From: Giardia intestinalis
Taxonomy: Eukaryota
DNA: 64,000 bases
Assembly: GCA_000002435.2 (NCBI GenBank)
Contig: CM018791.1
Reading direction: 5' to 3' (one strand)
The notes under the pieces were generated by a model, which saw only the letters and a program-made list of their open reading frames with translations, did not search any database and had not been told where the DNA came from. This document shows, in pieces, positions 1 through 15,600 of the stretch (position 1 is its first letter; the number at the start of each line of letters is the position of its first letter). The translations under genes and the position numbers were made by a program.

Positions 1-1214
1 ACCCAAATAAAGGAGTGGCTAATTGTGCAACCTGTACTGCAGCACAACAATGCACTAAGTGCCTTCCGGGCTTCTTTAAGACTAGTGCTACAGCTTGTGA
101 TGCTTGTGGTGATAACTGTGCCACATGTTCTGTTGCTGGTGATCCAAATAAGTGTGAAACCTGCAAGACTGGATACTTCTTGGTAACTACTACAGATCCA
201 CAGGGGAAGAAGTGTGTCCCCTGTGACAGTACAACAGATGGTGGCCGCGAAGGCTGCAGTGTCTGCTCTAGCAACGGTGGATTCAAGTGCACTGAATGTA
301 AGCCCAACTATAAGAAGCAGTCCAATGGTGATGCGGGGGATGACTATACATGTGTGAAGACCTGCGAGGACCCCACGGCTTGTGGTGGTACTTCTGGCGC
401 CTGTGATGCCATCGTAATCGACAACACAGGGAAGGAGCTTCACTACTGTTCATACTGTGGAAAGGACAGTGAGTTCCCCATTAATGGACTATGTGTTGGG
501 AATGAAAAGAAAGAGGGGAATAACTGTAACAGTCATACATGTACATCATGTACTACAGGATACTTCTTGTACATGGGAGGCTGCTATAAGTATGATACAG
601 AACCAGGAAGCCTCATGTGCAAGACCGCTGAAGGGGGCAAGTGCACAGTTGCCAATGATGGTAATAAGTACTTCGTAGTACCAGAGGCACAGACCACTGA
701 TCGGTCCGTGTTGGCCTGTGGCAACCCCCTTGGCACACTAGTAGGCACTGATAGTACCTCTAAGGCATACGTGGGGGTACTCAACTGTTCACAGTGTAAA
801 GCACCAGTAGCTCTGACAACAGTTGGTATGGCTGCCGCTGTCTGTACCTCCTGTGACAATAGTAAGAAGCCCAACAGGGATGGCAGTGGGTGCTTCCCAT
901 GTACCGTTAGTGGATGCTCGCACTGCAACAGGGATGACATGTGCGAGGCATGCAGTAGTGGTAAGAAGGTGAGCCCTGGAAGGAAGTCATGCGTGGATAG
1001 CTGCCCCAGCAACTCCACTGACACCGACTCTGTCTGTGTGTGCAACGATGGATACAGCCCTGACAGCAGTGGGACCTCCTGTGCGTCCTCTGGCACCAAC
1101 AGGAGCGGCCTCAGCACAGGGGCCATCGCGGGGATCGCCGTCGCCGTGGTCGTCGTTGTGGGGGGCCTCGTGGGCTTCCTCTGCTGGTGGTTCATATGTA
1201 GAGGGAAGGCGTGA
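1..1214 (+). CDS. VSP (variant-specific surface protein) unit 1, truncated at its 5' end by the window edge. Ends with a TM helix plus the CRGKA tail.
   Basis: Frame 0 is open from nt 3 to a TGA at 1212-1214. Numerous CXXC motifs. GGCYK motif. C-terminal '...GAIAGIAVAVVVVVGGLVGFLCWWFICRGKA*', a hydrophobic TM helix followed by the invariant 5-aa CRGKA tail. The first ~190 nt are identical to an internal segment of unit 3 (3886 onward). Confidence 0.85.
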   Translation, partial: PNKGVANCATCTAAQQCTKCLPGFFKTSATACDACGDNCATCSVAGDPNKCETCKTGYFLVTTTDPQGKKCVPCDSTTDGGREGCSVCSSNGGFKCTECKPNYKKQSNGDAGDDYTCVKTCEDPTACGGTSGACDAIVIDNTGKELHYCSYCGKDSEFPINGLCVGNEKKEGNNCNSHTCTSCTTGYFLYMGGCYKYDTEPGSLMCKTAEGGKCTVANDGNKYFVVPEAQTTDRSVLACGNPLGTLVGTDSTSKAYVGVLNCSQCKAPVALTTVGMAAAVCTSCDNSKKPNRDGSGCFPCTVSGCSHCNRDDMCEACSSGKKVSPGRKSCVDSCPSNSTDTDSVCVCNDGYSPDSSGTSCASSGTNRSGLSTGAIAGIAVAVVVVVGGLVGFLCWWFICRGKA

Positions 1215-1221
1215 CTTAGGT

Positions 1222-1228
1222 AGTGAAT
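1222..1228 (+). promoter_or_regulatory. Putative Giardia polyadenylation signal AGTGAAT (AGTRAAY class), 8 nt after the unit 1 stop.
   Basis: The motif 'cttaggtAGTGAATgct' recurs after every VSP unit. The Giardia poly(A) signal consensus is AGTRAAY, located within about 30 nt of the stop. Confidence 0.6.
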
Positions 1229-1236
1229 GCTGTACA

Positions 1237-1283
1237 GTGATAGTGATAGTGATAGTGCTATGTGGTGTGTGGGGTGATAGTGG
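1237..1283. repeat. Inter-VSP spacer microsatellite (GTGATA)3 followed by a GT-rich 'GTGTGTGGGGTGATAGTGGTGGTGTGGG' segment.
   Basis: Direct reading: gtgata gtgata gtgata gtg at 1237-1257, then gtgatagtgg at 1274-1283. The 6-nt period keeps one frame open ('VIVIVIV') while placing TGA and TAG in the other two. Confidence 0.85.
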
Positions 1284-1302
1284 TGGTGTGGGACTCCTCT
1301 TC

Positions 1303-3168
1303 ATGGGCGGGTGCTACAACAGGACAAGACCTGGCAGTGAGATATGCACAGCAGCCAGTAACGGAGTATGCACTGCTTGTAATACAAAGAACGGCCTGTT
1401 CAAGAACCCAGTTACACCTCAGAAGCCTGGTAGTGAGTGCATCCTCTGCTGGGACACGGTGGGAGATGGCGCGACGAAGGGAGTAGAGAACTGCGCACAG
1501 TGTCAGGCACCACAGAGTGCAGGAGCAGCTACATGCACTGCCTGTCAAGATGGATACTATAAGAACGCTCAGACATGTGAGAAGTGTGATCAGTCCTGTC
1601 TGACCTGTGAGACTACAGAGACCCAGTGTACCTCTTGTAAGGGAAATACGTTCCTGAAGGATAATGCATGCGTGAATAGTGATGGATGCACTGGAAACAC
1701 TTATGCTGACCCTGTGACAATGACCTGCAAGGCGTCTGCAATAACTGATTGCACCACGTGTGAGTACAACCCGGCAACTGGGGGCCCAAAGTGCACGGCA
1801 TGTAATGGAGCTAAGATAGTCAAGGAAGAGGCCGACGGGACGACTACGTGTATAGACGCCGGCACCTGCACTCAAAGCGGAGCAACTGGTGAGAACTTCT
1901 TGAGCGACGGAGATGCCGAATGCATACTATGTAGCAACGATAGCAGCAAGACAGATAATAACAAGGGAAGCCCCGGTTGCGGGACCTGCAGCAAGAACGG
2001 CGCTAAGCCAGAATGCAAGACGTGCCTCGATGGCTACTACGACAGCGGGAACGGTAACCCCGCCGTATGCGTTGCGTGCGCTGGCGATTGCGGAAAGTGC
2101 GGGCCAGGAGGCGCTATAGATACCTGTGAAAAGTGCAAGCCAGGGTTTTTCTTAAAGAATGACGGGGCCAAGAAGTGCGTCCCCTGCGACGATCCGACAG
2201 ATGGAGTGCCCGGCTGTGCAACGTGCACCTTCTCTAACTCGTTTACTTGTGACTCTTGTAAGGTGAACTACCAAAAGAAGGTAGGGGCTGGAGGAGCGGT
2301 CACGTGTGAGAAGACTTGTGAAGACCCTACTGCTTGTGGTGGTACTTCTGGCGCCTGCGATGCAATAGTGATCGACAACACAGGGAAGGAGCTTCACTAC
2401 TGTTCATACTGTGGAAAGGACAGTGAGTTCCCCATTAATGGACTATGTGTTGGGAATGAAAAGAAAGAGGGGAATAACTGTAACAGTCATACATGTACAT
2501 CATGTACTACAGGATACTTCTTGTACATGGGAGGCTGCTATAAGTATGATACAGAACCAGGAAGCCTCATGTGCAAGACCGCTGAAGGGGGCAAGTGCAC
2601 AGTTGCCAATGATGGTAATAAGTACTTCGTAGTACCAGAGGCACAGACCACTGATCGGTCCGTGTTGGCCTGTGGCAACCCCCTTGGCACACTAGTAGGC
2701 ACTGATAGTACCTCTAAGGCATACGTGGGGGTACTCAACTGTTCACAGTGTACAGCCCCAGCAGCTCCATCTGAGGGTGGCATGACTGCCGCCACGTGCA
2801 CAGCGTGTACCAACAACAACAAGCCCAACCTGGCTGGGAGCGGGTGCTTCCCATGTACCGTTAGTGGATGCTCGCACTGCAACAGGGATGACATGTGCGA
2901 GGCATGCAGTAGTGGTAAGAAGGTGAGCCCTGGAAGGAAGTCATGCGTGGATAGCTGCCCCAGCAACTCCACTGACACCGACTCTGTCTGTGTGTGCAAC
3001 GATGGATACAGCCCTGACAGCAGTGGGACCTCCTGTGCGTCCTCTGGCACCAACAGGAGCGGGCTCTCCACGGGGGCCATCGCGGGCATCTCCGTCGCTG
3101 TGGTCGTCGTCGTGGGGGGCCTCGTGGGCTTCTTGTGTTGGTGGTTCGTGTGTAGAGGGAAGGCGTGA
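1303..3168 (+). CDS. VSP unit 2, N-terminally truncated. The first in-frame ATG lies inside the GGCY motif and there is no signal peptide. Possible silent cassette or pseudogene.
   Basis: The VSP-homologous frame runs from about 1285 to a TGA at 3166-3168 and ends in CRGKA. The ORF-track extension back to 1036 merely reads unit 1's 3' end in the +1 frame. The only in-frame ATG after the previous stop is 1303, giving 'MGGCYNRTRPGSEICTAASNGVCTACN', which has no hydrophobic leader. Nearly identical to unit 6. Confidence 0.8.
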   Translation: MGGCYNRTRPGSEICTAASNGVCTACNTKNGLFKNPVTPQKPGSECILCWDTVGDGATKGVENCAQCQAPQSAGAATCTACQDGYYKNAQTCEKCDQSCLTCETTETQCTSCKGNTFLKDNACVNSDGCTGNTYADPVTMTCKASAITDCTTCEYNPATGGPKCTACNGAKIVKEEADGTTTCIDAGTCTQSGATGENFLSDGDAECILCSNDSSKTDNNKGSPGCGTCSKNGAKPECKTCLDGYYDSGNGNPAVCVACAGDCGKCGPGGAIDTCEKCKPGFFLKNDGAKKCVPCDDPTDGVPGCATCTFSNSFTCDSCKVNYQKKVGAGGAVTCEKTCEDPTACGGTSGACDAIVIDNTGKELHYCSYCGKDSEFPINGLCVGNEKKEGNNCNSHTCTSCTTGYFLYMGGCYKYDTEPGSLMCKTAEGGKCTVANDGNKYFVVPEAQTTDRSVLACGNPLGTLVGTDSTSKAYVGVLNCSQCTAPAAPSEGGMTAATCTACTNNNKPNLAGSGCFPCTVSGCSHCNRDDMCEACSSGKKVSPGRKSCVDSCPSNSTDTDSVCVCNDGYSPDSSGTSCASSGTNRSGLSTGAIAGISVAVVVVVGGLVGFLCWWFVCRGKA

Positions 3169-3175
3169 CTTAGGT

Positions 3176-3182
3176 AGTGAAT
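3176..3182 (+). promoter_or_regulatory. Putative polyadenylation signal AGTGAAT after unit 2.
   Basis: Same conserved 3' flank as the other units. Confidence 0.6.
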
Positions 3183-3194
3183 GCTATACAATGT

Positions 3195-3250
3195 GTGATA
3201 GAGGGTGATAATGGGTGATAATGGGTGATAGGGTGATAGTGGAGTGTGAT
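3195..3250. repeat. Inter-VSP spacer ~10-nt repeat GTGATARNGG, five degenerate copies.
   Basis: gtgatagagg / gtgataatgg / gtgataatgg / gtgataggg / tgatagtgg / agtgtgat. Contains TGA/TAG in all three frames. TAG at 3237-3239 closes the body frame nine nt upstream of the GTG 'start'. Confidence 0.85.
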
Positions 3251-5066
3251 ATGCACAGCAGCCAGTAATGGAGTGTGCACTGAGTGTAATACAGATAGTC
3301 AGTACATATTCCAGAACAGGGCTACACCTCAGAAACCTGGTAGTGAGTGCATTCTGTGCTGGGACACGGTGGGAGATGGCGCGACAAAGGGAGTAGAGAA
3401 CTGCGCCACATGTACAGCGCCAGCTAGTAGTCCAGGAGCTGCCACGTGCGCTGAGTGCAAGGCAGGGTACTATAAAGAGAATAACGAATGCAAACCATGC
3501 CAGGAGAACTGTGCCACATGTACCGGGGCCGGTCAGAATCAGTGTTCATCTTGTAAAGCGGGCTTCTATCTGAAGACTGACAAGTCATGCTCAGAAACCT
3601 GCGATAATAACCAGTACTCCAACCCAAGCACCGGCAAGTGCACAGCCTGTAGTGATGCAGAAGCGGGGATAGCTGATTGCGACACATGCACATACGATAC
3701 GACGCTGCAGAAGCCGAAGTGCACAGCCTGTGGTAGCAGTGGGAAAAAGGTGAAGACGGCCATCGACGGCACCACGACATGTGTTACTGTTACATCCGAT
3801 TGCGTAGACGAGAATCACTTCAAGGCAGATGATGACTCAGCTTGTTATCTATGTAGTGATACAACAGGAACAGACCCAAATAAAGGAGTGGCTAATTGTG
3901 CAACCTGTACTGCAGCACAACAATGCACTAAGTGCCTTCCGGGCTTCTTTAAGACTAGTGCTACAGCTTGTGATGCTTGTGGTGATAACTGTGCCACATG
4001 TTCTGTTGCTGGTGATCCAAATAAGTGTGAAACCTGCAAGACTGGATACTTCTTGGTAACTACTACAGATCCACAGGGGAAGAAGTGTGTCCCCTGTGAC
4101 AGTACAACAGATGGTGGCCGCGAAGGCTGCAGTGTCTGCTCTAGCAACGGTGGATTCAAGTGCACTGAATGTAAGCCCAACTATAAGAAGCAGTCCAATG
4201 GTGATGCGGGGGATGACTATACATGTGTGAAGACCTGCGAGGACCCCACGGCTTGTGGTGGTACTTCTGGCGCCTGTGATGCCATCGTAATCGACAACAC
4301 AGGGAAGGAGCTTCACTACTGTTCTTACTGTGGAAAGGACAGTGAGTTCCCTATTGATGGTATATGTAATAGTGATAAAGGAACTAATCAATGTAATCAA
4401 GGTGTATGTACATCATGTACTACGGGGTACTTTATGTACATGAATGGTTGTTACAAGGTGACAGAGGTGCCGGGTAAGTCCATGTGCACAAAGGCAGGTG
4501 ATGGTGTCTGCACAGAGGCGGCAGCTGGGTACTTCATCCCTCCCTCGCCCACCAAGGACAAGCAGTCTGTCCTCTCCTGTGGGAACCCCCTTGGGGTCGA
4601 GCTGGCTGGTCAGAAGGCATACGTAGGAGTAGATGGCTGCTCCCAGTGTAAAGCACCAGTAGCTCTGACAACAGTTGGTATGGCTGCCGCTGTCTGTACC
4701 TCCTGTGACAATAGTAAGAAGCCCAACAGGGATGGCAGTGGGTGCTTCACATGTACCGTTAGTGGATGCTCGCACTGCAACAGGGATGACATGTGCGAGG
4801 CATGCAGTAGTGGTAAGAAGGTGAGCCCTGGAAGGAAGTCATGCGTGGATAGCTGCCCCAGCAACTCCACTGACACCGACTCTGTCTGTGTGTGCAACGA
4901 TGGATACAGCCCTGACAGCAGTGGGACCTCCTGTGCGTCCTCTGGCACCAACAGGAGCGGGCTCTCCACGGGGGCCATCGCGGGCATCTCCGTGGCTGTG
5001 GTCGTTGTCGTGGGGGGCCTCGTGGGCTTCCTCTGCTGGTGGTTCATATGTAGAGGGAAGGCGTAG
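3246..5066 (+). CDS. VSP unit 3. There is no ATG; the ORF-track start is a GTG. No signal peptide; ends in CRGKA. Possible silent cassette or pseudogene.
   Basis: Positions 3246-3248 are GTG. A TAG at 3237-3239, within the GTGATA spacer, closes the frame immediately upstream. None of the five ATGs in the spacer is in the body frame, and each meets a stop within 6-16 codons. The first in-frame ATG is about 1.2 kb downstream ('GYFMYMNGCYKV'). CXXC-rich. Conserved 'CEDPTACGGTSGACDAIVID...HYCSYCG' core. TM helix plus CRGKA, TAG at 5064-5066. Confidence 0.8.
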   Translation: MICTAASNGVCTECNTDSQYIFQNRATPQKPGSECILCWDTVGDGATKGVENCATCTAPASSPGAATCAECKAGYYKENNECKPCQENCATCTGAGQNQCSSCKAGFYLKTDKSCSETCDNNQYSNPSTGKCTACSDAEAGIADCDTCTYDTTLQKPKCTACGSSGKKVKTAIDGTTTCVTVTSDCVDENHFKADDDSACYLCSDTTGTDPNKGVANCATCTAAQQCTKCLPGFFKTSATACDACGDNCATCSVAGDPNKCETCKTGYFLVTTTDPQGKKCVPCDSTTDGGREGCSVCSSNGGFKCTECKPNYKKQSNGDAGDDYTCVKTCEDPTACGGTSGACDAIVIDNTGKELHYCSYCGKDSEFPIDGICNSDKGTNQCNQGVCTSCTTGYFMYMNGCYKVTEVPGKSMCTKAGDGVCTEAAAGYFIPPSPTKDKQSVLSCGNPLGVELAGQKAYVGVDGCSQCKAPVALTTVGMAAAVCTSCDNSKKPNRDGSGCFTCTVSGCSHCNRDDMCEACSSGKKVSPGRKSCVDSCPSNSTDTDSVCVCNDGYSPDSSGTSCASSGTNRSGLSTGAIAGISVAVVVVVGGLVGFLCWWFICRGKA

Positions 5067-5076
5067 GTACTTAGGT

Positions 5077-5083
5077 AGTGAAT
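5077..5083 (+). promoter_or_regulatory. Putative polyadenylation signal AGTGAAT after unit 3.
   Basis: Same conserved 3' flank. Confidence 0.6.
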
Positions 5084-5094
5084 GCTGTACAATG

Positions 5095-5152
5095 TGTGAT
5101 AGAAGGTGATAGTGGGTGATAATGGGTGATAGAGGGTGATAGTGGAGTGTGA
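5095..5152. repeat. Inter-VSP spacer GTGATARNGG-type repeat.
   Basis: gtgatagaaggtgatagtgggtgataatgggtgatagagggtgatagtggagtgtgat. Same architecture as 3195-3250. Confidence 0.85.
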
Positions 5153-6870
5153 TATGCACAAAGGCTGAGGGAGGAGTGTGCACTGCTTGTAAGGCAGATA
5201 ACGGCCTGTTCAAGAACCCGGCTGCAGCACCGAAGCCTGGTAGTGAGTGCATACTGTGCTCTGATATCAAGGGAGCAGATGGATATACGGGGGTGGCTAA
5301 CTGCGCACAGTGTACCAAGTCAGACAGTAGTCCAGGAGCAGCCACGTGTAGTACCTGCAGAGATGGATACTACATGGACTCTCAGGCATGTGTCAAATGT
5401 AATGACGCTTGTCTGACCTGCGATGGAAGTGGTCCGAATCAGTGTACATCGTGCCCAGAGGGGAAGTACCTGAAGACTGACAAGTCATGCGTGAATAATA
5501 ATGGATGCACTGGAAACACTTATGCTGACCCTGTGACAATGACCTGCAAGGATTCTGCAATAACTGATTGCACCACGTGTGAGTACAATGCGACCGTCAG
5601 TAAGCCCCAGTGCACCGCCTGTAATAACAATAAGAAGGTGAAGACGGCCATCGACGGCACCACGACATGTGTTACTGTTACATCCGATTGCGTAGACGAG
5701 AATCACTTCAAGGCAGATGATGACTCAGCTTGTTATCTATGTAGTGATACAACAGGAACAGACCCAAATAAAGGAGTGGCTAATTGTGCAACCTGTACTG
5801 CAGCACAACAATGCACTAAGTGCCTTCCGGGCTTCTTTAAGACTAGTGCTACAGCTTGTGATGCTTGTGGTGATAACTGTGCCACATGTTCTGTTGCTGG
5901 TGATCCAAATAAGTGTGAAACCTGCAAGACTGGATACTTCTTAGTAACTACTACAGATCAACAGGGGAAGAAGTGCGTCCCATGCGATAGCGTAGACGAT
6001 AAGGGTCGCGAAGGCTGCAGTGTCTGCTCTAACAACGGTGCTTTCAAGTGCACTGACTGTAAGCCTAACTATCGCAAGGAGGGCAGTACTGGCTCTGTCA
6101 CATGCACCAAGATCTGTGAAGATGATACTGCCTGTGGAGGAACTTCTGGTGCCTGCGATGCAATAGTGATTGATGATAAGGGTGTAGAGCATCATTATTG
6201 CTCATACTGTGGAGAAGCTAATACGTATCCTATAGATGGGAAGTGTAATAGTGCTAAAGCAAATAATCAATGTGATCAAGGTGTATGTACACAATGCACT
6301 AACAACTACTTCTTGTATATGGGAGGTTGTTACAAGGTTGATACAGTACCTGGACAACATATGTGCAAGACAGCAGCCAACGGTGTCTGTACTGCTGTTA
6401 ATGCCAACAATAGGTACTTCATAGTCCCTGGGGCAACCAATCAGAATCAGTCTGTATTGGCATGTAGCAACTCCCTTGGCACACTAGTAGGCACTGGTGA
6501 TACCTCTAAGGCATATGTGGGGGTAGATGGCTGTTCGGCATGTACGGCCCCAGCAGCTCTGTCTGATGGTGGTATGACTGCCGCTGTGTGTACCTCCTGT
6601 GACAGTGGTAAGGTGCCCAACAAGGACGGCAGTGGGTGTGTGACATGCTCTGTGGGTGATTGTAAGAGCTGTGTGATGGATAATATATGTGAAGAGTGCA
6701 ACAGTGGTTTCAGCATAGACAGCAGTGGGGCCTCCTGTGTGTCTATGAGTACCAACAGGAGCGGGCTCTCCACGGGGGCCATCGCGGGGATCTCCGTCGC
6801 TGTGGTCGTTGTCGTGGGGGGCCTCGTGGGCTTCCTCTGCTGGTGGTTCATATGTAGAGGGAAGGCATGA
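5149..6870 (+). CDS. VSP unit 4, the most divergent copy. There is no ATG; the ORF-track start is a GTG. No signal peptide; ends in CRGKA.
   Basis: Positions 5149-5151 are GTG. The frame is open to a TGA at 6868-6870. Its C-terminal cysteine module is distinct ('CVTCSVGDCKSCVMDNICEECNSGFSIDSSGASCVSMSTNRSGLSTG...') but the TM helix and CRGKA tail are the same. The 5' half is shared with unit 7. Confidence 0.8.
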   Translation: MICTKAEGGVCTACKADNGLFKNPAAAPKPGSECILCSDIKGADGYTGVANCAQCTKSDSSPGAATCSTCRDGYYMDSQACVKCNDACLTCDGSGPNQCTSCPEGKYLKTDKSCVNNNGCTGNTYADPVTMTCKDSAITDCTTCEYNATVSKPQCTACNNNKKVKTAIDGTTTCVTVTSDCVDENHFKADDDSACYLCSDTTGTDPNKGVANCATCTAAQQCTKCLPGFFKTSATACDACGDNCATCSVAGDPNKCETCKTGYFLVTTTDQQGKKCVPCDSVDDKGREGCSVCSNNGAFKCTDCKPNYRKEGSTGSVTCTKICEDDTACGGTSGACDAIVIDDKGVEHHYCSYCGEANTYPIDGKCNSAKANNQCDQGVCTQCTNNYFLYMGGCYKVDTVPGQHMCKTAANGVCTAVNANNRYFIVPGATNQNQSVLACSNSLGTLVGTGDTSKAYVGVDGCSACTAPAALSDGGMTAAVCTSCDSGKVPNKDGSGCVTCSVGDCKSCVMDNICEECNSGFSIDSSGASCVSMSTNRSGLSTGAIAGISVAVVVVVGGLVGFLCWWFICRGKA

Positions 6871-6877
6871 CTCAGGT

Positions 6878-6884
6878 AGTGAAT
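6878..6884 (+). promoter_or_regulatory. Putative polyadenylation signal AGTGAAT after unit 4.
   Basis: Same conserved 3' flank ('ctcaggtagtgaat'). Confidence 0.6.
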
Positions 6885-6890
6885 GCTATA

Positions 6891-6950
6891 CAATGTGTGA
6901 TAATGGGTAATAGAGGGTGATAGTGTGATAGTGATAGTGGAGTGTGATAT
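6891..6950. repeat. Inter-VSP spacer GTGATA-type repeat (degenerate 10-nt and 6-7-nt copies).
   Basis: gtgtgataatgggtaatagagggtgatagtgtgatagtgatagtggagtgtgat. Confidence 0.8.
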
Positions 6951-8791
6951 GCACAAAGGCCAGTAGTGGACTGTGCACTGCTTGTAAGACAGATAACAAG
7001 TACATATTCCAGAACAGGGCAGACAAGGTGACTCCTGGTGGGGAGTGCATCTTGTGCTCTGATATCAAGGGAGCGAATGAGAACAAAGGAGTGGCCAACT
7101 GCCTCAAGTGCACGGCGCCAGCTAGTAGTCCAGGACCTGCCACGTGTACTGAGTGCAAGGCTGGGTACGTTAAGGATAGCGTTTCTAATACGTGTAAGAA
7201 GTGCGGAGAGGGCTGCTCAGAGAGTAATCAAAATCAATGCTCGGCATGCGTTGAGGGGAAGTACCTGAAGGGTGATAACACTTGTGTAGAGGCTAGTGGA
7301 TGCGGTGCTGGTAACTATGCAGACCCGACAACAGGCCAATGTAAGGCATGTGATCCCGACATAGCTGGGTGCACCGCATGTGAATATAATGATGCCACGG
7401 GGAAGCCAAGGTGCACCAACTGCGGGACCAATAAGACCCCCAGGACGACCCTTGATGGGACCTCGACCTGTGTGACAAAAGACTACGCTGGATGTAAAGG
7501 CGCTGACGGGGCCCTATTTATGAAGGAGGACAAAACATGTGTTTTATGCAGTACCGTTTCAGCTGGAGCCGATCCAAATGACCAGGGCATTGCCGGGTGT
7601 AAGAAGTGTACCAAGGACTCGGCGACACCGCCAACCTGCTCGGAGTGCCTCGACGGATATTACAATAGCGCAACTGGTGGTAGTGGTACGGCTACATGTG
7701 AAGCTTGTGGTGATAATTGTGCCACCTGTGCTAAGGATACAAAAGACCAATGCATGACCTGTAAGCCCGGGTTCTTCATGAAAGGTAGTGGTCCTGGCAC
7801 ATGCGTCCCCTGTGATGACCAAACAGATGGAGTGCCTGGCTGTGCAACGTGCACCTTCTCTAGCTCGTTGACCTGCAACTCCTGTAAGCCCAACTACAAG
7901 CAGAGTGGTACCGGTCCTTTTACATGCACCAAGACTTGTGAAGACCCCACTGCCTGCGGGGGCACTTCTGGTGCCTGCGATGCCATGATAATTGATGATC
8001 AGGGCACCACAAAGCACTACTGTTCCTACTGTGGAGAGACCAATAAGATACCAATTGATGGGAAGTGTGTTGATAGTGGTAGTATAAATGGTAATACTTG
8101 TGCTAAAGGTGTATGTACACAGTGTGCTCAAGGATACTTCTTATACATGGGAGGCTGTTATAAGGTAGCAAGTCCACCCGGTAACCTCATGTGCACTGAA
8201 GCAACAACAGCTGGTGTCTGTGATACACCCAATGCCAATAATAAGTACTTCGTAGTCCCAGAAGCAAAGCCTACTCAACAGTCTGTGTTGGCTTGTGGTA
8301 ACCCCCTGGGCACACTAGTAGGCACTGATAGTACCGCTAAGGCATATGTGGGGGTGGATGGCTGCTCCCAGTGTACAGCCCCAACAGCTCCATCTGAGGG
8401 TGGCATGACTGCCGCCACGTGCACAGCGTGTACCAACAACAACAAGCCCAACCTGGCTGGGAGCGGGTGCTTCCCATGTACCGTTAGTGGATGCTCGCAC
8501 TGCAACAGGGATGACATGTGCGAGGCATGCAGTAGTGGTAAGAAGGTGAGCCCTGGAAGGAAGTCATGCGTGGATAGCTGCCCCAGCAACTCCACTGATG
8601 ATAACTCTGTCTGTGTGTGCAACGATGGATACAGCCCTGACAGCAGTGGGACCTCCTGTGTGTCCTCTGGCGCCAACAGGAGCGGCCTCAGCACAGGGGC
8701 CATCGCGGGGATCGCCGTCGCCGTGGTCGTCGTTGTGGGGGGCCTCGTGGGCTTCCTCTGCTGGTGGTTCATATGTAGAGGGAAGGCGTGA
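6944..8791 (+). CDS. VSP unit 5. There is no ATG; the ORF-track start is a GTG. No signal peptide; ends in CRGKA.
   Basis: Positions 6944-6946 are GTG. TGA at 8789-8791. CXXC-rich with a GGCYK motif. The C-terminal 100 aa are nearly identical to the other units. The 3' end plus the following spacer are identical to the unit 1 to unit 2 junction. Confidence 0.8.
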   Translation: MICTKASSGLCTACKTDNKYIFQNRADKVTPGGECILCSDIKGANENKGVANCLKCTAPASSPGPATCTECKAGYVKDSVSNTCKKCGEGCSESNQNQCSACVEGKYLKGDNTCVEASGCGAGNYADPTTGQCKACDPDIAGCTACEYNDATGKPRCTNCGTNKTPRTTLDGTSTCVTKDYAGCKGADGALFMKEDKTCVLCSTVSAGADPNDQGIAGCKKCTKDSATPPTCSECLDGYYNSATGGSGTATCEACGDNCATCAKDTKDQCMTCKPGFFMKGSGPGTCVPCDDQTDGVPGCATCTFSSSLTCNSCKPNYKQSGTGPFTCTKTCEDPTACGGTSGACDAMIIDDQGTTKHYCSYCGETNKIPIDGKCVDSGSINGNTCAKGVCTQCAQGYFLYMGGCYKVASPPGNLMCTEATTAGVCDTPNANNKYFVVPEAKPTQQSVLACGNPLGTLVGTDSTAKAYVGVDGCSQCTAPTAPSEGGMTAATCTACTNNNKPNLAGSGCFPCTVSGCSHCNRDDMCEACSSGKKVSPGRKSCVDSCPSNSTDDNSVCVCNDGYSPDSSGTSCVSSGANRSGLSTGAIAGIAVAVVVVVGGLVGFLCWWFICRGKA

Positions 8792-8798
8792 CTTAGGT

Positions 8799-8805
8799 AG
8801 TGAAT
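8799..8805 (+). promoter_or_regulatory. Putative polyadenylation signal AGTGAAT after unit 5.
   Basis: Same conserved 3' flank. Confidence 0.6.
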
Positions 8806-8813
8806 GCTGTACA

Positions 8814-8860
8814 GTGATAGTGATAGTGATAGTGCTATGTGGTGTGTGGGGTGATAGTGG
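8814..8860. repeat. Inter-VSP spacer (GTGATA)3 plus a GT-rich segment, identical to 1237-1283.
   Basis: The whole 88-nt junction 8792-8879 is identical to 1215-1302. Confidence 0.85.
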
Positions 8861-8879
8861 TGGTGTGGGACTCCTCTTC

Positions 8880-10748
8880 ATGGGCGGGTGCTACAAGGCA
8901 GGACAAGATCCTGGCAGTGAGATATGCACAGCAGCCAGTAACGGAGTATGCACTGCTTGTAATACAAAGAACGGCCTGTTCAAGAACCCAGTTACACCTC
9001 AGAAGCCTGGTAGTGAGTGCATCCTCTGCTGGGACACGGTGGGAGATGGCGCGACGAAGGGAGTAGAGAACTGCGCACAGTGTCAGGCACCACAGAGTGC
9101 AGGAGCAGCTACATGCACTGCCTGTCAAGATGGATACTATAAGAACGCTCAGACATGTGAGAAGTGTGATCAGTCCTGTCTGACCTGTGAGACTACAGAG
9201 ACCCAGTGTACCTCTTGTAAGGGAAATACGTTCCTGAAGGATAATGCATGCGTGAATAGTGATGGATGCACTGGAAACACTTATGCTGACCCTGTGACAA
9301 TGACCTGCAAGGCGTCTGCAATAACTGATTGCACCACGTGTGAGTACAACCCGGCAACTGGGGGCCCAAAGTGCACGGCATGTAATGGAGCTAAGATAGT
9401 CAAGGAAGAGGCCGACGGGACGACTACGTGTATAGACGCCGGCACCTGCACTCAAAGCGGAGCAACTGGTGAGAACTTCTTGAGCGACGGAGATGCCGAA
9501 TGCATACTATGTAGCAACGATAGCAGCAAGACAGATAATAACAAGGGAAGCCCCGGTTGCGGGACCTGCAGCAAGAACGGCGCTAAGCCAGAATGCAAGA
9601 CGTGCCTCGATGGCTACTACGACAGCGGGAACGGTAACCCCGCCGTATGCGTTGCGTGCGCTGGCGATTGCGGAAAGTGCGGGCCAGGAGGCGCTATAGA
9701 TACCTGTGAAAAGTGCAAGCCAGGGTTTTTCTTAAAGAATGACGGGGCCAAGAAGTGCGTCCCCTGCGACGATCCGACAGATGGAGTGCCCGGCTGTGCA
9801 ACGTGCACCTTCTCTAACTCGTTTACTTGTGACTCTTGTAAGGTGAACTACCAAAAGAAGGTAGGGGCTGGAGGAGCGGTCACGTGTGAGAAGACTTGTG
9901 AAGACCCTACTGCTTGTGGTGGTACTTCTGGCGCCTGCGATGCAATAGTGATCGACAACACAGGGAAGGAGCTTCACTACTGTTCATACTGTGGAAAGGA
10001 CAGTGAGTTCCCCATTAATGGACTATGTGTTGGGAATGAAAAGAAAGAGGGGAATAACTGTAACAGTCATACATGTACATCATGTACTACAGGATACTTC
10101 TTGTACATGGGAGGCTGCTATAAGTATGATACAGAACCAGGAAGCCTCATGTGCAAGACCGCTGAAGGGGGCAAGTGCACAGTTGCCAATGATGGTAATA
10201 AGTACTTCGTAGTACCAGAGGCACAGACCACTGATCGGTCCGTGTTGGCCTGTGGCAACCCCCTTGGCACACTAGTAGGCACTGATAGTACCTCTAAGGC
10301 ATACGTGGGGGTACTCAACTGTTCACAGTGTACAGCCCCAGCAGCTCCATCTGAGGGTGGCATGACTGCCGCCACGTGCACAGCGTGTACCAACAACAAC
10401 AAGCCCAACCTGGCTGGGAGCGGGTGCTTCCCATGTACCGTTAGTGGATGCTCGCACTGCAACAGGGATGACATGTGCGAGGCATGCAGTAGTGGTAAGA
10501 AGGTGAGCCCTGGAAGGAAGTCATGCGTGGATAGCTGCCCCAGCAACTCCACTGACACCGACTCTGTCTGTGTGTGCAACGATGGATACAGCCCTGACAG
10601 CAGTGGGACCTCCTGTGCGTCCTCTGGCACCAACAGGAGCGGGCTCTCCACGGGGGCCATCGCGGGGATCTCCGTCGCCGTGGTCGTTGTCGTGGGGGGC
10701 CTCGTGGGCTTCCTCTGCTGGTGGTTCATATGTAGAGGGAAGGCGTGA
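8880..10748 (+). CDS. VSP unit 6, a near-duplicate of unit 2. The first in-frame ATG lies inside the GGCY motif and there is no signal peptide.
   Basis: ATG at 8880-8882 giving 'MGGCYKAGQDPGSEICTAAS...'. The remainder is identical to unit 2 at the protein level apart from one 3-nt indel with adjacent substitutions near the start. It lies 7577-7580 nt downstream of unit 2. TGA at 10746-10748. The ORF-track start at 8598 is an out-of-frame read-through of unit 5's 3' end. Confidence 0.8.
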   Translation: MGGCYKAGQDPGSEICTAASNGVCTACNTKNGLFKNPVTPQKPGSECILCWDTVGDGATKGVENCAQCQAPQSAGAATCTACQDGYYKNAQTCEKCDQSCLTCETTETQCTSCKGNTFLKDNACVNSDGCTGNTYADPVTMTCKASAITDCTTCEYNPATGGPKCTACNGAKIVKEEADGTTTCIDAGTCTQSGATGENFLSDGDAECILCSNDSSKTDNNKGSPGCGTCSKNGAKPECKTCLDGYYDSGNGNPAVCVACAGDCGKCGPGGAIDTCEKCKPGFFLKNDGAKKCVPCDDPTDGVPGCATCTFSNSFTCDSCKVNYQKKVGAGGAVTCEKTCEDPTACGGTSGACDAIVIDNTGKELHYCSYCGKDSEFPINGLCVGNEKKEGNNCNSHTCTSCTTGYFLYMGGCYKYDTEPGSLMCKTAEGGKCTVANDGNKYFVVPEAQTTDRSVLACGNPLGTLVGTDSTSKAYVGVLNCSQCTAPAAPSEGGMTAATCTACTNNNKPNLAGSGCFPCTVSGCSHCNRDDMCEACSSGKKVSPGRKSCVDSCPSNSTDTDSVCVCNDGYSPDSSGTSCASSGTNRSGLSTGAIAGISVAVVVVVGGLVGFLCWWFICRGKA

Positions 10749-10755
10749 CTTAGGT

Positions 10756-10762
10756 AGTGAAT
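10756..10762 (+). promoter_or_regulatory. Putative polyadenylation signal AGTGAAT after unit 6.
   Basis: Same conserved 3' flank. Confidence 0.6.
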
Positions 10763-10774
10763 GCTGTACAATGT

Positions 10775-10830
10775 GTGATAGAAGGTGATAGTGGGTGATA
10801 ATGGGTGATAGAGGGTGATAGTGGAGTGTG
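10775..10830. repeat. Inter-VSP spacer GTGATARNGG-type repeat.
   Basis: gtgatagaaggtgatagtgggtgataatgggtgatagagggtgatagtggagtgtgat, identical to the 5095-5152 spacer. Confidence 0.85.
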
Positions 10831-12633
10831 ATATGCACAAAGGCTGAGGGAGGAGTGTGCACTGCTTGTAAGGCAGATAACGGCCTGTTCAAGAACCCAG
10901 TTACACCTCAGAAGCCTGGTGGGGAGTGCATACTGTGCTCTGATATCAAGGGAGCAGATGGATATACGGGGGTGGCTAACTGCGCACAGTGTACCAAGTC
11001 AGACAGTAGTCCAGGAGCAGCCACGTGTAGTACCTGCAGAGATGGATACTACATGGACTCTCAGGCATGTGTCAAATGTAATGACGCTTGTCTGACCTGC
11101 GATGGAAGTGGTCCGAATCAGTGTACATCGTGCCCAGAGGGGAAGTACCTGAAGACTGACAAGTCATGCGTGAATAATAATGGATGCACTGGAAACACTT
11201 ATGCTGACCCTGTGACAATGACCTGCAAGGATTCTGCAATAACTGATTGCACCACGTGTGAGTACAATGCGACCGTCAGTAAGCCCCAGTGCACCGCCTG
11301 TAATAACAATAAGAAGGTGAAGACGGCCATCGACGGCACCACGACATGTGTTACTGTTACATCCGATTGCGTAGACGAGAATCACTTCAAGGCAGATGAT
11401 GACTCAGCTTGTTATCTATGTAGTGATACAACAGGAACAGACCCAAATAAAGGAGTGGCTAATTGTGCAACCTGTACTGCAGCACAACAATGCACTAAGT
11501 GCCTTCCGGGCTTCTTTAAGACTAGTGCTACAGCTTGTGATGCTTGTGGTGATAACTGTGCCACATGTTCTGTTGCTGGTGATCCAAATAAGTGTGAAAC
11601 CTGCAAGACTGGATACTTCTTGGTAACTACTACAGATCCACAGGGGAAGAAGTGTGTCCCCTGTGACAGTACAACAGATGGTGGCCGCGAAGGCTGCAGT
11701 GTCTGCTCTAGCAACGGTGGATTCAAGTGCACTGAATGTAAGCCCAACTATAAGAAGCAGTCCAATGGTGATGCGGGGGATGACTATACATGTGTGAAGA
11801 CCTGCGAGGACCCCACGGCTTGTGGTGGTACTTCTGGCGCCTGTGATGCCATCGTAATCGACAACACAGGGAAGGAGCTTCACTACTGTTCTTACTGTGG
11901 AAAGGACAGTGAGTTCCCTATTGATGGTATATGTAATAGTGATAAAGGAACTAATCAATGTAATCAAGGTGTATGTACATCATGTACTACGGGGTACTTT
12001 ATGTACATGAATGGTTGTTACAAGGTGACAGAGGTGCCGGGTAAGTCCATGTGCACAAAGGCAGGTGATGGTGTCTGCACAGAGGCGGCAGCTGGGTACT
12101 TCATCCCTCCCTCGCCCACCAAGGACAAGCAGTCTGTCCTCTCCTGTGGGAACCCCCTTGGGGTCGAGCTGGCTGGCCAGAAGGCATACGTAGGAGTAGA
12201 TGGCTGTTCACAGTGTACAGCACCAAAACAGCTAGAGGCTCCTGGCATGACTCCTGCTATATGTACCTCTTGTGACAGTAGTAAGAAGCCCAACAGGGAT
12301 GGCAGTGGGTGCTTCCCATGTACCGTTAGTGGATGCTCGCACTGTGATATGGACAACATGTGCGAGGCATGCAGTAGTGGTAAGAAGGTGAGCCCTGGAA
12401 GGAAGTCATGCGTGGATAGCTGCCCCAGCAACTCCACTGATGATAACTCTGTCTGTGTGTGCAACGATGGATATAGCCCTGACAGCAGTGGGACCTCCTG
12501 TGTGTCCTCTGGCGCCAACAGGAGCGGCCTCAGCACAGGGGCCATCGCGGGGATCTCCGTCGCTGTGGTCGTCGTCGTGGGGGGCCTCGTCGGCTTCCTC
12601 TGCTGGTGGTTCGTGTGCAGGGGGAAGGCGTAG
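10828..12633 (+). CDS. VSP unit 7, the terminal unit. It is a chimera of the unit 4 5' half and the unit 3 3' half. There is no ATG; the ORF-track start is a GTG. Ends in CRGKA.
   Basis: Positions 10828-10830 are GTG. The N-terminal ~270 aa match unit 4 ('MICTKAEGGVCTACKADNGLFKNP...'). From 'DPQGKKCVPCDSTTDGGREGCSVCSSNGGFKCTECKPNYKKQSNGDAGDDY' onward it matches unit 3. TAG at 12631-12633. Its 3' flank differs from the others: a duplicated 'acttag', AGTAAAC instead of AGTGAAT, and no GTGATA repeat. Confidence 0.8.
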   Translation: MICTKAEGGVCTACKADNGLFKNPVTPQKPGGECILCSDIKGADGYTGVANCAQCTKSDSSPGAATCSTCRDGYYMDSQACVKCNDACLTCDGSGPNQCTSCPEGKYLKTDKSCVNNNGCTGNTYADPVTMTCKDSAITDCTTCEYNATVSKPQCTACNNNKKVKTAIDGTTTCVTVTSDCVDENHFKADDDSACYLCSDTTGTDPNKGVANCATCTAAQQCTKCLPGFFKTSATACDACGDNCATCSVAGDPNKCETCKTGYFLVTTTDPQGKKCVPCDSTTDGGREGCSVCSSNGGFKCTECKPNYKKQSNGDAGDDYTCVKTCEDPTACGGTSGACDAIVIDNTGKELHYCSYCGKDSEFPIDGICNSDKGTNQCNQGVCTSCTTGYFMYMNGCYKVTEVPGKSMCTKAGDGVCTEAAAGYFIPPSPTKDKQSVLSCGNPLGVELAGQKAYVGVDGCSQCTAPKQLEAPGMTPAICTSCDSSKKPNRDGSGCFPCTVSGCSHCDMDNMCEACSSGKKVSPGRKSCVDSCPSNSTDDNSVCVCNDGYSPDSSGTSCVSSGANRSGLSTGAIAGISVAVVVVVGGLVGFLCWWFVCRGKA

Positions 12634-12653
12634 ACTTAGCTGTGTACTTAGGT

Positions 12654-12660
12654 AGTAAAC
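12654..12660 (+). promoter_or_regulatory. Putative polyadenylation signal AGTAAAC (the canonical Giardia form) after the terminal unit 7.
   Basis: 'tacttaggtAGTAAACgc'. The flank differs from the internal junctions and marks the array boundary. Confidence 0.6.
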
Positions 12661-15600
12661 GCATCGCCTATTGCACCTGTCCACTCCATGGCCGTTGCGC
12701 CGTCATTCCATAAAACCGTTGGACCACCTGTCTCCGAGCATCCGTCGAATCCTGCGGTAGGACCGCGCCTCCATGTTTTGCCGTGCCCGCTTCTGTATGG
12801 CAATGAGCACCCCCTACTATTGTACAACTATTCCACCCAGAGGCAGGCGACATACATGGATCTTGACTCTAATATGCGCCTCTGTGCACCACCTCTCGCA
12901 CCTTAGCAGCCCGACTACAACATCGTGGGGTCTGGGCACTCCCAAGCGGCGTGTGTCGGGCACCTGATCGACTATGCACAAGGCCCGTGGCAGTCAAGGC
13001 GTGCAGCGCTGGACTATCATCTTAAGTACCCGGCGCATCCAAAGAGACGATAGCTGGAAGAACGGCTAGCCACACTTTTCAACCATTGGTGTCTTGCAGC
13101 ATCTCCAACATAAGCCTCTAGGCAGCGGTTCGCAGTGATACATGAGCTACAGGGGAGCTTGCCGCCAAACATGATCTGTGTGCATAGACCGGTTACCGTT
13201 ACTTGATGAAGTAGACGCTTCTCAGTTCGGGCACGTCTGGTCCGCGTGATCTCCTTGCCCGGGGCTCTTTTCTATAGCTATTACCGTGTGCGGGGTCCAA
13301 GAGGGCAGCCATCGATTTTCAAATGCGCGCTTGGCTCTGCCTTTCCCGGGATGCGCAGTGCTAAGCGTTGACGAACCACGCTCTGGCCACAGGATTTCCT
13401 TCGTGGGAAGGAAGCTCCTCCACAGTCCTGTAATCACATCCTAGAAGTGCCTGACTCCAGCTCCAATGTCATTATGGGTGACTCAGCCATGGAATGAATA
13501 CCACAGGACATCATGGTTAATGACATATGCTGCGGATCTTCCGACGGTTCTGCTGAGCCCTGTGCCGCTATCCGCAAACATCTACCCCAGGGATATAGAA
13601 ATCAGAGTCTGCAGAGGGATCCCTGGGGCTGTGAGCAGGGTGGTCTTCAGGGACGACCGGCGGCATCCACGGACATGGGCGCTCCCAACTGTGGTCGGCT
13701 CGAAGGCAGTGCTTGTTGGCTCATGCAAGGGCGATGCGGCTCTCCGGTAGGTCCCAGTGTCCGGCTGCATAATCTCTGTTAGATTCCTGGACGGGCTGAG
13801 ATTTTAGCCACGGCATCTGCAGGCAAGCCCGCACTGTGGCCTCCTCCAGCAGGAGCCAATCTGTCTCATCTCCGATGCCACCCTTCGCCGGGCCTTCGGT
13901 GGGACACCCATACACGTCAGCCATTGCACAATATACAGTATGAATCTCTAACAGTCTCTGACACATCGCACAGCTCCCTCAGCCGCCAGTTCGGCCATCC
14001 TACGGCGGAAACTCCTTAACTCGTTCCGAATTAAGAAGAGAAGCGCCGTCAGGCCCCGCCAGTACTGCGATCGGAGACGTCGTGGGAACACGGGGTGCCG
14101 AACCTTCTGCCGTTGACTGTCAGCCCCCGCACACGGGGATTCCGGCTGCATCCCACTACGCACTCTCGTGGAGCGACAGCGCAGACACTAAAGGGTGGCT
14201 TGGGGTCGTTCACTGGGCGTCGGCCACCTCATCGAGACCCCCGCAAATTGCTCCCGAGGAGTCTGCCGCCGACATGCGTTATAGGTGGGCACTTAGTGCG
14301 CTCTGCGAGGACAGGCCGGCCAGTATGAAGGACCTCACAGACAAAGAGCCTGAGGGCCTATAGCGGACTTCTACAGGCCAGTTCAACAACAGAGACGTCG
14401 GATGGCAGGCGCTAACAAGGATTGCTCGGCTCGACCCGCTAACGTAGATCCTCCAGATTGCATGCGCAAGACTGTTGCACTTACAACGGAGACCGACCTG
14501 GGTCGAGGCTCACATAAGGACAGCAACGTCGTGGATCATGGAAGCAACACGTGCATGGCGTTTATCCGTGCCTCCTGTCCATCCAGTGCTTGGGCCAGAC
14601 GCTGACCCTGGCAGTCAAGCAGAGAATGCACAGCAGCCGGCCCCAGACTGGGCGACCCAGAACTGCTTGTAAAATGGTCAACATGTCGCTGGGCCAGTTG
14701 TGGAGTGCGAAACTAAGAACGAGGCTCCTCCATGCTGCTGGTCAGCTCGGTCTCCAGGGAGCAGCTCCAAAAGAGACTACACGACGAACGAGGGCCAGCA
14801 AGGGGCCAGAAGGAGCAGTCGTTCGACAAATGAGGAAGAGCCAGAGATGCAACAACATGCAGGCGGCAGAGAAGAAGCAGGCACACCTAGCTCCGGTCAC
14901 TTTTCCACTTATTGGGTGCTGAGGGATGCACTCAGTAAGGACAGCCTGTACCAGCAACGTCGCAGCTTCAGCCTGAGCACTCCCTCCCGGGCTTCTTGTA
15001 CACTGCTGGAGAGAGCGTCCACTTGGGCCTGCTAGGAGCAGACCCGCTCGATGAGGCCCTGGGACCTTCTCGTACTCTTCGCTGCCATCGGTGTATCCAG
15101 GTAGCGTACCGGTACTTCGTGGCACCAGTGGGGAATGCTCTTCCTATCTACGCCTAGTTCCTGGAATCTCCTGCCAGTGAAGGACGCTTTGAACATAGGC
15201 TCACACGGAGCTTAGGGCGTCTGTGTGTCCGCCCAGCAGGTAGCACAGCACCAGGCGGGCAGTCGTCATGCCGCGCTGGATGCCAGCTTCTTTAATCAAG
15301 GAGCCATTCGACGCGAAGCTCTTCCGGATACACGGCTCGCTGGACGAGCTGGCTCAGCAGACCCGCCTGCAGGGGACCTCGTTGGGCATGGCTGGCGGTC
15401 GTCGGCTCCTGAGCAGGGGAGCTCATCCATTTCTCGGCGGTGGGCAGTGCATCTCCTCCGGCGCACCCACTCGTGCCAGGAGGCGTGTACAAGACGATCA
15501 GAGATGTAGTTGTGCCTGATGGCCACATCCAGGATGCAGACATGGAGGTAATAGTATACCTGTCAAGACAGCACACGACTTCCCTACAGCTCCTTGGCGT

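Follow-up and report, generated by a model that had tools for sequence, protein, structure and literature searches.

The first 12.6 kb of the window (the whole 64,000-nt stretch of DNA that was analysed) are the distal part of a VSP linear array, which lies on chromosome 3 (NC_051858.1) of Giardia intestinalis WB and is read on the + strand. The units are pseudo-VSPs, arranged head-to-tail and devoid of start codon and signal peptide. The array is already known, both as pseudo-VSPs in the WB reference annotation and from the literature; it is real but ordinary. The following features were mapped:

1..1214, + strand: unit 1, 3' 1214 nt only; pseudo-VSP GL50803_0050320, frame open from the window edge to CRGKA-TGA
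1215..1302, + strand: type A junction; extended VSP poly(A) signal CTTAGGTAGTGAAT, (GTGATA)3, and a relic of the ...GLLF of the GYFLFMGGCY motif
1303..3168, + strand: unit 2; pseudo-VSP GL50803_0050321, ATG at 1303 (MGGCYNRTRPGSE...), 621 aa, no signal peptide; 1866 nt and sequence match in Table S7
3169..3239, + strand: type B junction; poly(A) signal and GTGATA(N)GG 10-nt repeat, in-frame TAG at its end
3240..5066, + strand: unit 3; pseudo-VSP GL50803_0050322, open frame from WSVICTAAS..., first in-frame ATG at 4434 (codon 399)
5067..5142, + strand: type B junction
5143..6870, + strand: unit 4; pseudo-VSP GL50803_0050323, first in-frame ATG at 5374; Pfam VSP match of 142.7 bits
6871..6937, + strand: type B junction, CTCAGG variant; degenerate mix
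6938..8791, + strand: unit 5; pseudo-VSP GL50803_0050324, first in-frame ATG at 7520
8792..8879, + strand: type A junction, identical to 1215-1302
8880..10748, + strand: unit 6; pseudo-VSP GL50803_0050325, 1869 nt, 622 aa from ATG 8880, 99.6% identical to unit 2
10749..10821, + strand: type B junction
10822..12633, + strand: unit 7, the last; pseudo-VSP GL50803_0050326, 1812 nt; 5' third equal to unit 4, rest close to unit 3
12647..12662, + strand: terminal extended poly(A) signal, CTTAGGTAGTAAACGC; AGTAAAC variant, typical of stand-alone or terminal VSPs, marking the array end
13987-14106: 5S rRNA gene

Re-translation bore out the initial annotation in its basic description of seven consecutive cysteine-rich + strand frames, each with a TM helix and a CRGKA tail (7/7); the motif TGYAGRGGGAAGGCRTRR occurs seven times, against 0.00 expected. 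The stops that it placed at 1214, 3168, 5066, 6870, 8791, 10748 and 12633 are exact, and the unit spacing, given as 1.80-1.96 kb, was measured at 1804-1957 nt. Cysteine makes up 11.6-12.2% of residues, with 25-26 CXXC per complete unit and the GGCY motif alongside; unit 4 scores 142.7 bits against profile PF03302 (cutoff 31.4), and 238 VSP homologues were found. The cassettes have kept the complete cysteine-rich ectodomain, from the first GGCY motif on in units 2 and 6 and from just after it in units 3, 4, 5 and 7 (unit 1 runs past the window edge), together with TM helix, CRGKA tail and a poly(A) signal specific to VSPs.

A conserved flank had been noted after each unit, and it is there (CTYAGGTAGTRAAYGC, n = 7 against 0.01 expected); just 3' of the stop, the extended poly(A) signal ACTYAGRTAGTRAAY is present in 7/7 units (0.01 by chance). 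The spacers at the six internal junctions measure 67-88 nt and are GTGATA-rich. The description of these as a GTGATA-type microsatellite is right for two junctions, which contain a true (GTGATA)3, but not for three others, which carry a 10-nt GTGATAGAGG-like repeat, nor for 6871-6937, where the repeat is a degenerate mix. Junctions 1215-1302 and 8792-8879 are identical as claimed; exact identity goes on for another 119 nt upstream and 105 nt downstream. Read-through or fusion of units can be rejected, as not all successive units keep one frame (that of unit 2 overlaps the 3' end of unit 1 in another frame) and type B spacers have an in-frame TAG at their end.

What is missing from the units lies at the 5' end. 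Compared with a full VSP, 90-105 codons are missing from the start of each, comprising the signal peptide and first module; a tblastn search with the intact VSP P0001 covered residues 91-720 in units 2 and 6, and residues 106-720 in units 3, 4, 5 and 7. The unit N-termini show no hydrophobic signal peptide by a hydropathy heuristic, unlike MFQLIPLFVASALMAAC of P0001, and this absence agrees with two published annotations. The PyAATGTT initiator (Inr) is absent from the + strand over positions 1-17000. In units 2 and 6 the frame has an ATG right at its 5' end, while in units 3, 4, 5 and 7 (4/6 complete units) the first in-frame ATG comes only 77-398 codons in. The term "VSP genes" first given to these units, in the sense of intact genes, thus has to be withdrawn: they are 5'-truncated, without signal peptide or Inr, and are annotated as pVSP pseudogenes.

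Units 2-7 correspond to the annotated pVSP pseudogenes GL50803_0050321-0050326 on NC_051858.1, their unit-specific 5'-end strings matching, and the annotated lengths of 1866, 1869 and 1812 nt agree with units 2, 6 and 7, the three for which lengths were checked. Unit 1 has no sequence match inside the window because the listed 5' end of GL50803_0050320 falls outside it; the unit was assigned by its position in the numbering before 0050321 and by its junction-type 3' flank, and from the annotated length of 1833 nt it starts ~619 nt before the window. The array does not start in the window, whose edge runs through unit 1. Upstream, the array continues through 0050319 and, on indirect evidence, probably reaches as far as the intact VSP GL50803_00114674, a candidate array head with a signal peptide, a start ATGTT and a junction-type 3' flank; protein accessions are consecutive there (KAE8303325, then KAE8303326). 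The number 114674 is absent from the text supplements of Adam 2010 (PMC2996952). An exact look-up of the unit proteins, taken from the first ATG, gave no match in the protein collection, which is consistent with the pseudogene annotation.

On the other side, the array was said to end abruptly against a GC-rich ORF desert. The composition holds, with 58% G+C and only short ORFs over 12661-16540, but the region is not empty, as it contains the 5S rRNA gene, the only hit of a tRNA scan and a permissive Rfam scan of the flank. Some 50 kb of ordinary genes follow the array on the window side, with no telomeric features seen, and flanking proteins match exactly GL50803_0010241, XMAP215, 0010239 and 0010232 of the WB contig. 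Neither self-BLASTN nor tblastn found other VSP-like sequence in the rest of the window.

The dot-plot has the diagonals anticipated at ~1.9 kb and ~7.58 kb (the latter at 7.57-7.58 kb). In self-BLASTN, offset 7577 pairs 662-3448 with 8239-11027 (95.2%) and offset 7569 pairs 3708-5074 with 11277-12639 (95.3%); a further offset of 5682 and many diagonals of ~1.9 kb were also found. Units 2 and 6 are near-identical (99.6%), as reported, with a 1757-nt identical stretch and differences confined to two patches, 1319-1329 and 3087-3150. The 7.58-kb diagonal of the proposed four-unit higher-order repeat is therefore real, but it is not a clean four-unit duplication, since unit 4 and most of unit 5 have no partner there. 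A sliding-window comparison showed the 5' third of unit 7 to equal unit 4, not unit 3, and revealed 100%-identical blocks that change partners at offsets of one, two, three and four units. Because identical blocks occur at several offsets, the 7.58-kb repeat is one mosaic layer rather than a simple block duplication, and such a patchwork of 100% blocks is what duplication plus gene conversion is expected to give. The mosaic also extends to an intact gene: translated, the last 483 codons of unit 5 equal the C-terminal 483 aa of GL50803_00114674 residue for residue, with a sharp breakpoint.

The reading frames are intact. No in-frame stop occurs in 4093 codons, against 9-72 per unit in other frames, and neutral simulation at 10% divergence gives P(no stop) = 0.0015. 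Between units dN/dS values lie at 0.27-0.44, and 67/69 Cys columns are invariant. Selection on the cassettes need not be the cause of the low dN/dS and intact frames, which may instead come from functional ancestors or have been brought in by conversion.

We are rather confident in reading this as the distal part of a psiVSP linear array that would have grown by duplication and been reshuffled by gene conversion, and that would serve as a silent archive for expression-competent VSPs. The array would have grown via unequal crossing-over or segmental duplication, the 7.58-kb offset being one such layer, and segmental gene conversion would reshuffle it continually. The cassettes would not be expressed on their own; as a silent archive they would exchange sequence with expression-competent VSPs, foremost GL50803_00114674, the probable array head, and the outcome would be a surface-antigen repertoire diversified over evolutionary time.

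The same anatomy might instead belong to inert by-products of unequal crossing-over, the relics of cast-off vsp genes that Adam 2010 offered as an alternative (PMC2996952), with frames left intact by youth or passive homogenisation and no reservoir role. We regard this as possible but doubtful. Very recent duplication is evident in units 2 and 6, with their 1757-nt identical stretch, and start codons are absent. Against it, units with one and the same truncated junction stand at dS ~1, yet have no stop or frameshift in the 4093 codons and dN/dS ~0.3, and over 483 aa an intact VSP is identical to unit 5; both observations indicate exchange with functional genes.

A stronger version of the archive, in which selection keeps the start-less cassettes translatable and they actively donate long tracts to the head gene GL50803_00114674 on the timescale of clonal lines or infections, seems unlikely. 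The absence of stops, the dN/dS of ~0.3 and the 67/69 Cys columns give support to selection on the cassettes, and the 483-aa identity to unit 5 is consistent with tract donation. If true, active donation would put a recombinational layer on Giardia antigenic variation, which otherwise counts as purely epigenetic or post-transcriptional; as a hypothesis this has already been published, so only its demonstration would be new.

It is improbable that the higher-order repeat and 100% blocks are partly an assembly artefact, i.e. a chimeric consensus or the collapse or expansion of near-identical repeats. An older assembly is broken at VSP arrays, the Logan short-read contigs that carry the flanking gene stop at ~window position 16000, ~3.4 kb short of the array's right end, and do not reach it, and the 2007 models are slightly unlike the window units (P0044). 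The reference, however, comes from 200x PacBio plus optical mapping, and boundaries, frames and junctions are internally consistent.

Still harder to credit is a non-canonical use of the units, through translation from a non-AUG or upstream ATG, or through sense or antisense RNA feeding an RNAi-type VSP silencing. The (GTGATA)n spacer does read VIVIVIVLCGVW in the frame of units 2 and 6, a hydrophobic stretch (KD 3.6), the frame of unit 6 is open back to ATG 8598, and every unit keeps its poly(A) signal; but the psiVSPs of G. muris are essentially untranscribed (PMC7641422), and an in-frame TAG ends the type B spacers. Least credible of all are seven intact, independently expressible tandem VSP genes, for which one could cite the long uninterrupted frames, the TM helix, CRGKA and poly(A) signal of each unit, the 5'-end in-frame ATG of units 2 and 6, and the name "VSP" given to comparable array members in the 2007 annotation (P0002, P0003, P0005), but which are strongly disfavoured by the lack of signal peptides, and further by the lack of an Inr, spacers of only 67-88 nt, four units without a usable ATG, and the designation pVSP, given both by the reference annotation now in use and by a dedicated reclassification.

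Linear arrays consist of at least three adjacent head-to-tail VSP units with a mean intergenic distance of ~60 bp, range 0-241 (PMC2996952; PMC7641422), and often start with a typical VSP that has an Inr and a non-coding region upstream. This array counts seven units, 67-88 nt apart, and its downstream members lack Inr, proper start and signal peptide. Accounts of such arrays are given by Adam et al. 2010 (PMC2996952), as linear arrays, and by Xu et al. 2020 (PMC7000408), as psiVSP arrays; the role proposed for them is that of silent cassettes for recombination. Our locus resembles the G. intestinalis WB linear arrays (PMC2996952, PMC7000408) in its head-to-tail order, intergenic distances of ~60 bp, and downstream members without Inr or proper start; as in those, a unit often has its nearest relatives within its own array, with long 100%-identical tracts in common. 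There is no essential difference, since the locus is itself one of these arrays. What is added here is the truncation point (~residue 91 or 106), the two junction types, the block mosaic map, the dN/dS values, and the tract of 483 aa in common with GL50803_00114674.

Silent antigen-cassette archives that exchange mosaic tracts are found in other organisms: the VSG pseudogene arrays of T. brucei, vls of Borrelia and pilS of Neisseria are promoterless, 5'-truncated, in-frame tandem cassettes whose ends are shared with the expressed gene. To our knowledge, recombination from the arrays during infection has not been shown in Giardia, and we know of no dedicated expression site there. VSP switching in Giardia is regarded as epigenetic or post-transcriptional (PMC2996952). 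Closer at hand are the psiVSP arrays of G. muris, likewise pseudogene arrays without signal peptides, for which there is evidence of recombination or gene conversion with intact VSPs (PMC7641422); they are essentially untranscribed (Xu et al. 2020, PMC7641422), and the same paper draws the parallel to Pneumocystis and T. brucei. The G. muris arrays differ in being almost all telomere-adjacent and in having a GCRGK tail, whereas the array in our window has CRGKA and ordinary genes on the window side.

As a discovery the locus has little value, being annotated and of a structure class described since 2010. Its residual value is that of a clean worked example, with two junction types, a sharp truncation point and a block-level conversion map. 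Since an intact VSP and a silent cassette share an identical tract equivalent to 1.45 kb, it is also a convenient place to test whether psiVSPs feed expressed VSPs. P0004 and P0015, which lie on one contig, were examined as a possible array in another isolate and rejected: P0004 is a stand-alone VSP between ordinary genes.

The seven-unit tandem array is confirmed. Seven cysteine-rich frames on the + strand, each closing with a hydrophobic helix and CRGKA, appear in the ORF list as in the initial annotation, with their stops at the same positions.

Units of the array and their pVSP (pseudo-VSP) matches
Stop at 1214, + strand: unit 1, cut by the window edge
Stop at 3168, + strand: unit 2, GL50803_0050321 (1866 nt, 621 aa, ending ...WWFV CRGKA)
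Stop at 5066, + strand: unit 3, GL50803_0050322
Stop at 6870, + strand: unit 4, GL50803_0050323
Stop at 8791, + strand: unit 5, GL50803_0050324
Stop at 10748, + strand: unit 6, GL50803_0050325 (1869 nt)
Stop at 12633, + strand: unit 7, GL50803_0050326 (10822-12633, 1812 nt; 3' flank TACTTAGGTAGTAAACGCAT)
12647-12662, + strand: terminal poly(A) signal, end of the array

Across the 64-kb window there are seven copies of the codon string TGYAGRGGGAAGGCRTRR, where shuffles predict 0.00, and seven of the downstream motif CTYAGGTAGTRAAYGC, where 0.01 is expected. The spacers at the six internal junctions are rich in GTGATA and measure 67-88 nt; in three of them TRF reports a 10-nt GTGATAGAGG-like repeat, and two (type A) carry plain (GTGATA)3. 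These two, 1215-1302 and 8792-8879, are identical as claimed, both lying within a 224-nt exact run. The diagonals anticipated at ~1.9 and ~7.58 kb are present in self-BLASTN (many at about 1.8-1.96 kb, others at offsets 7577 and 7569); neither missing diagonals nor missing CRGKA tails, the outcomes named in advance as refuting, occurred. The array does end at 12660: beyond it, no VSP matches were found in the window by self-BLASTN or by tblastn of P0001, the intact 720-aa VSP GL50803_00114674. The same type A junction also occurs in arrays of another chromosome (GL50803_0050264, NC_051859.1, Table S7; ATGCTGTACAGTGATAGTGATAGTGCT...CTCCTCTTCATGGGCGGGTGCTAC).

The frames belong to the VSP family, as proposed, but they are 5'-truncated cassettes and not intact genes, with signal peptide, initiator (Inr, PyAATGTT) and start missing. 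Unit 4 scores 142.7 bits against Pfam PF03302 (Giardia VSP), and the homologues of unit 5 are 238 VSPs, every one from Giardia. The complete P0001 begins with the signal peptide MFQLIPLFVASALMAAC, followed by an N-terminal module of ~90 aa ending GYFLFMGGCY. In tblastn against the window, units 2 and 6 align to it only from residue 91, and units 3, 4, 5 and 7 only from residue 106. The latter four have an in-frame TAG at the spacer end, then directly an open frame reading WSVICT..., and their first in-frame ATGs (4434, 5374, 7520 and 11053) lie 77 to 398 codons into the frame; units 2 and 6 do possess an ATG (MGGCY...), but what follows it is not a hydrophobic leader. The + strand of 1-17000 contains no PyAATGTT. 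The cassette reading follows from these alignment starts, the late or leaderless ATGs and the absent initiator. Each cassette retains the ectodomain (from the first GGCY motif in units 2 and 6, from just after it in units 3, 4, 5 and 7), TM helix, CRGKA tail and poly(A) signal, and is without promoter or Inr, start codon and signal peptide. Two other VSP-family proteins, P0002 and P0005, have an in-frame ATG that overlaps the upstream poly(A) signal (AGTGAATG); at the window junctions this ATG is out of frame, through a 2-nt difference.

Arrays of this class are well described, and this one is already known: the reference genome carries an annotation for each of its units. The flanking ORFs correspond exactly to G. 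intestinalis WB C6 proteins on one common contig, namely GL50803_0010241, GL50803_0010239, GL50803_0010232 and the XMAP215-family protein. Unit-specific 5'-end strings of units 2-7 were found among the pVSP sequences for NC_051858.1 in Table S7 of Rodriguez-Walker et al. (bioRxiv 10.1101/2022.03.07.483299), as GL50803_0050321 to GL50803_0050326; unit 1 should therefore be GL50803_0050320 (1833 nt), starting ~619 nt before the window. Further upstream, the table places GL50803_0050319, a unit-2/6-like pVSP. Linear arrays, with spacers averaging ~60 bp and Inr absent from every downstream member, were described by Adam et al. 2010 (PMC2996952), who put forward two hypotheses for the downstream members: unexpressed cassettes serving recombination, or discarded remains. 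Xu et al. 2020 (PMC7000408) also cover the class, and the G. muris genome paper (PMC7641422) reports equivalent psiVSP arrays with evidence of gene conversion and essentially no transcription.

Alignment of all seven units reveals a mosaic. Units 2 and 6, described as nearly identical, are so (99.6%), differing only at 1319-1329 and 3087-3150 (8896-8909 and 10667-10730 in unit 6), with the 1757 nt between identical. The 5' patch is a 3-nt indel cluster and the 3' patch comprises eight substitutions in the TM-coding end; the pattern resembles micro-conversion acting on the conserved ends of a duplicate that arose very recently. The first ~700 alignment columns of unit 7 equal unit 4 (100%) and the next ~900 are identical to units 3 and 1; unit 1 passes from U3-like through U2-like to U5-like; unit 5 is the most divergent, at 67-74% identity to the others. 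Self-BLASTN pairs 662-3448 with 8239-11027 (offset 7577, 95.2%), 3708-5074 with 11277-12639 (offset 7569, 95.3%) and 4716-6338 with 10398-12026 (offset 5682, 92.3%). Thus the 7.58-kb offset is real, but the proposed four-unit duplication is one layer of a patchwork: it pairs the 3' end of unit 1, unit 2 and part of unit 3 with the 3' end of unit 5, unit 6 and part of unit 7, leaving unit 4 and most of unit 5 partnerless, beside strong three-unit and one-unit offsets. Since GL50803_0050319 is unit-2/6-like, a two-unit offset is added. Such a patchwork is the signature expected of unequal crossing-over with segmental gene conversion, not of a single clean four-unit duplication.

GL50803_00114674 (KAE8303325.1) has a signal peptide and the start ATGTT. 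Its C-terminal 483 residues equal unit 5 (100%), with a sharp breakpoint at residue ~240 and ~50% identity upstream, which points to a recent long conversion tract with either one as recipient. We infer that this gene probably heads the array from the unit 5 identity, the shared chromosome, its 3' flank (the array-junction variant GACTTAGGTAGTGAATGCTG) and accession order, KAE8303325.1 directly preceding KAE8303326.1 (GL50803_0010241). In P0004, a stand-alone homologue from another Giardia assembly (ENA ERZ28528424), CCTTTCTACTG (NODE_39, 9980-10010) replaces the start ATGTTCCAACTG of GL50803_00114674, so that the called ORF begins at a downstream Met within the signal peptide. Pseudo-VSPs may thus also arise by this independent route.

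None of the 4093 in-frame codons is a stop, against 9-72 stops per unit in the other two frames; in neutral simulation of unit 5, the probability of no stop was 0.026 at 5% divergence and 0.0015 at 10%. Pairwise dN/dS between units is 0.27-0.44, with dS up to ~1.1, and Cys is invariant in 67 of 69 Cys-containing columns. Because units with the same truncated junction differ so much, either protein-level constraint must have acted as they diverged following truncation, or their bodies must have been overwritten from functional VSPs with junctions homogenised. Either case implies an exchange of sequence with functional genes, and neither amounts to proof of selection acting today or of a donor role.

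Taken together, the evidence best supports a silent psiVSP linear array. Its anatomy and mosaic are observed directly; silence and a reservoir function, previously proposed in the literature, are inferred. Unequal crossing-over and gene conversion would expand and reshuffle the array, and its cassettes would exchange tracts with expression-competent VSPs. That the units are inert by-products of crossing-over is a less likely but plausible alternative. Non-canonical use, by translation through the spacer or as a regulatory RNA source, is conceivable but unlikely. Read in frame with units 2 and 6, the (GTGATA)3 spacer gives VIVIVIVLCGVW, which is strongly hydrophobic (1237-1272, 8814-8849). The unit 6 frame also extends upstream without a stop as far as an ATG at 8598, which lies within unit 5 (ORF of 716 aa). 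We know of no evidence that this ORF or the hydrophobic spacer frame is used. A partial assembly artefact is unlikely, the reference having been built from 200x PacBio and an optical map, and the lack of signal peptide, ATG and Inr contradicts a reading as intact, independently expressed genes.

The 3.9 kb past the array (12661-16540) has 58% G+C, against 47% in the rest of the window, and only short ORFs, none with family matches. The description of a GC-rich ORF desert holds to that extent, but a full-length 5S rRNA gene lies inside, probably annotated already since Xu et al. 2020 (PMC7000408) count ten in the WB assembly. Ordinary Giardia genes follow from 16543 onward. Among the GL50803_0010239-bearing Logan short-read contigs shown, the longest (L001 and L002) have left ends at ~15997-16060 and others stop further right; the former suggest that the G+C-rich stretch is repetitive or hard to assemble.

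Other features of the window
13987-14106, + strand: 5S rRNA gene, full-length (Rfam RF00001, 85.3 bits)
24760-27834, + strand: 1024-aa ORF with three Pfam polysaccharide lyase family 8 domains, Lyase_8 (2e-15), Lyase_8_N and Lyase_8_C
584-1195, 2538-3191, 4610-5161, 6447-6956, 8275-8772, 10118-10840 and 12018-12545, - strand: antisense ORFs of 165-240 aa

The putative glycosaminoglycan-lyase-like protein could interest work on host interaction or gene transfer. The antisense ORFs lie opposite the conserved 3' third in every unit and probably result from nothing more than the codon composition of VSPs.
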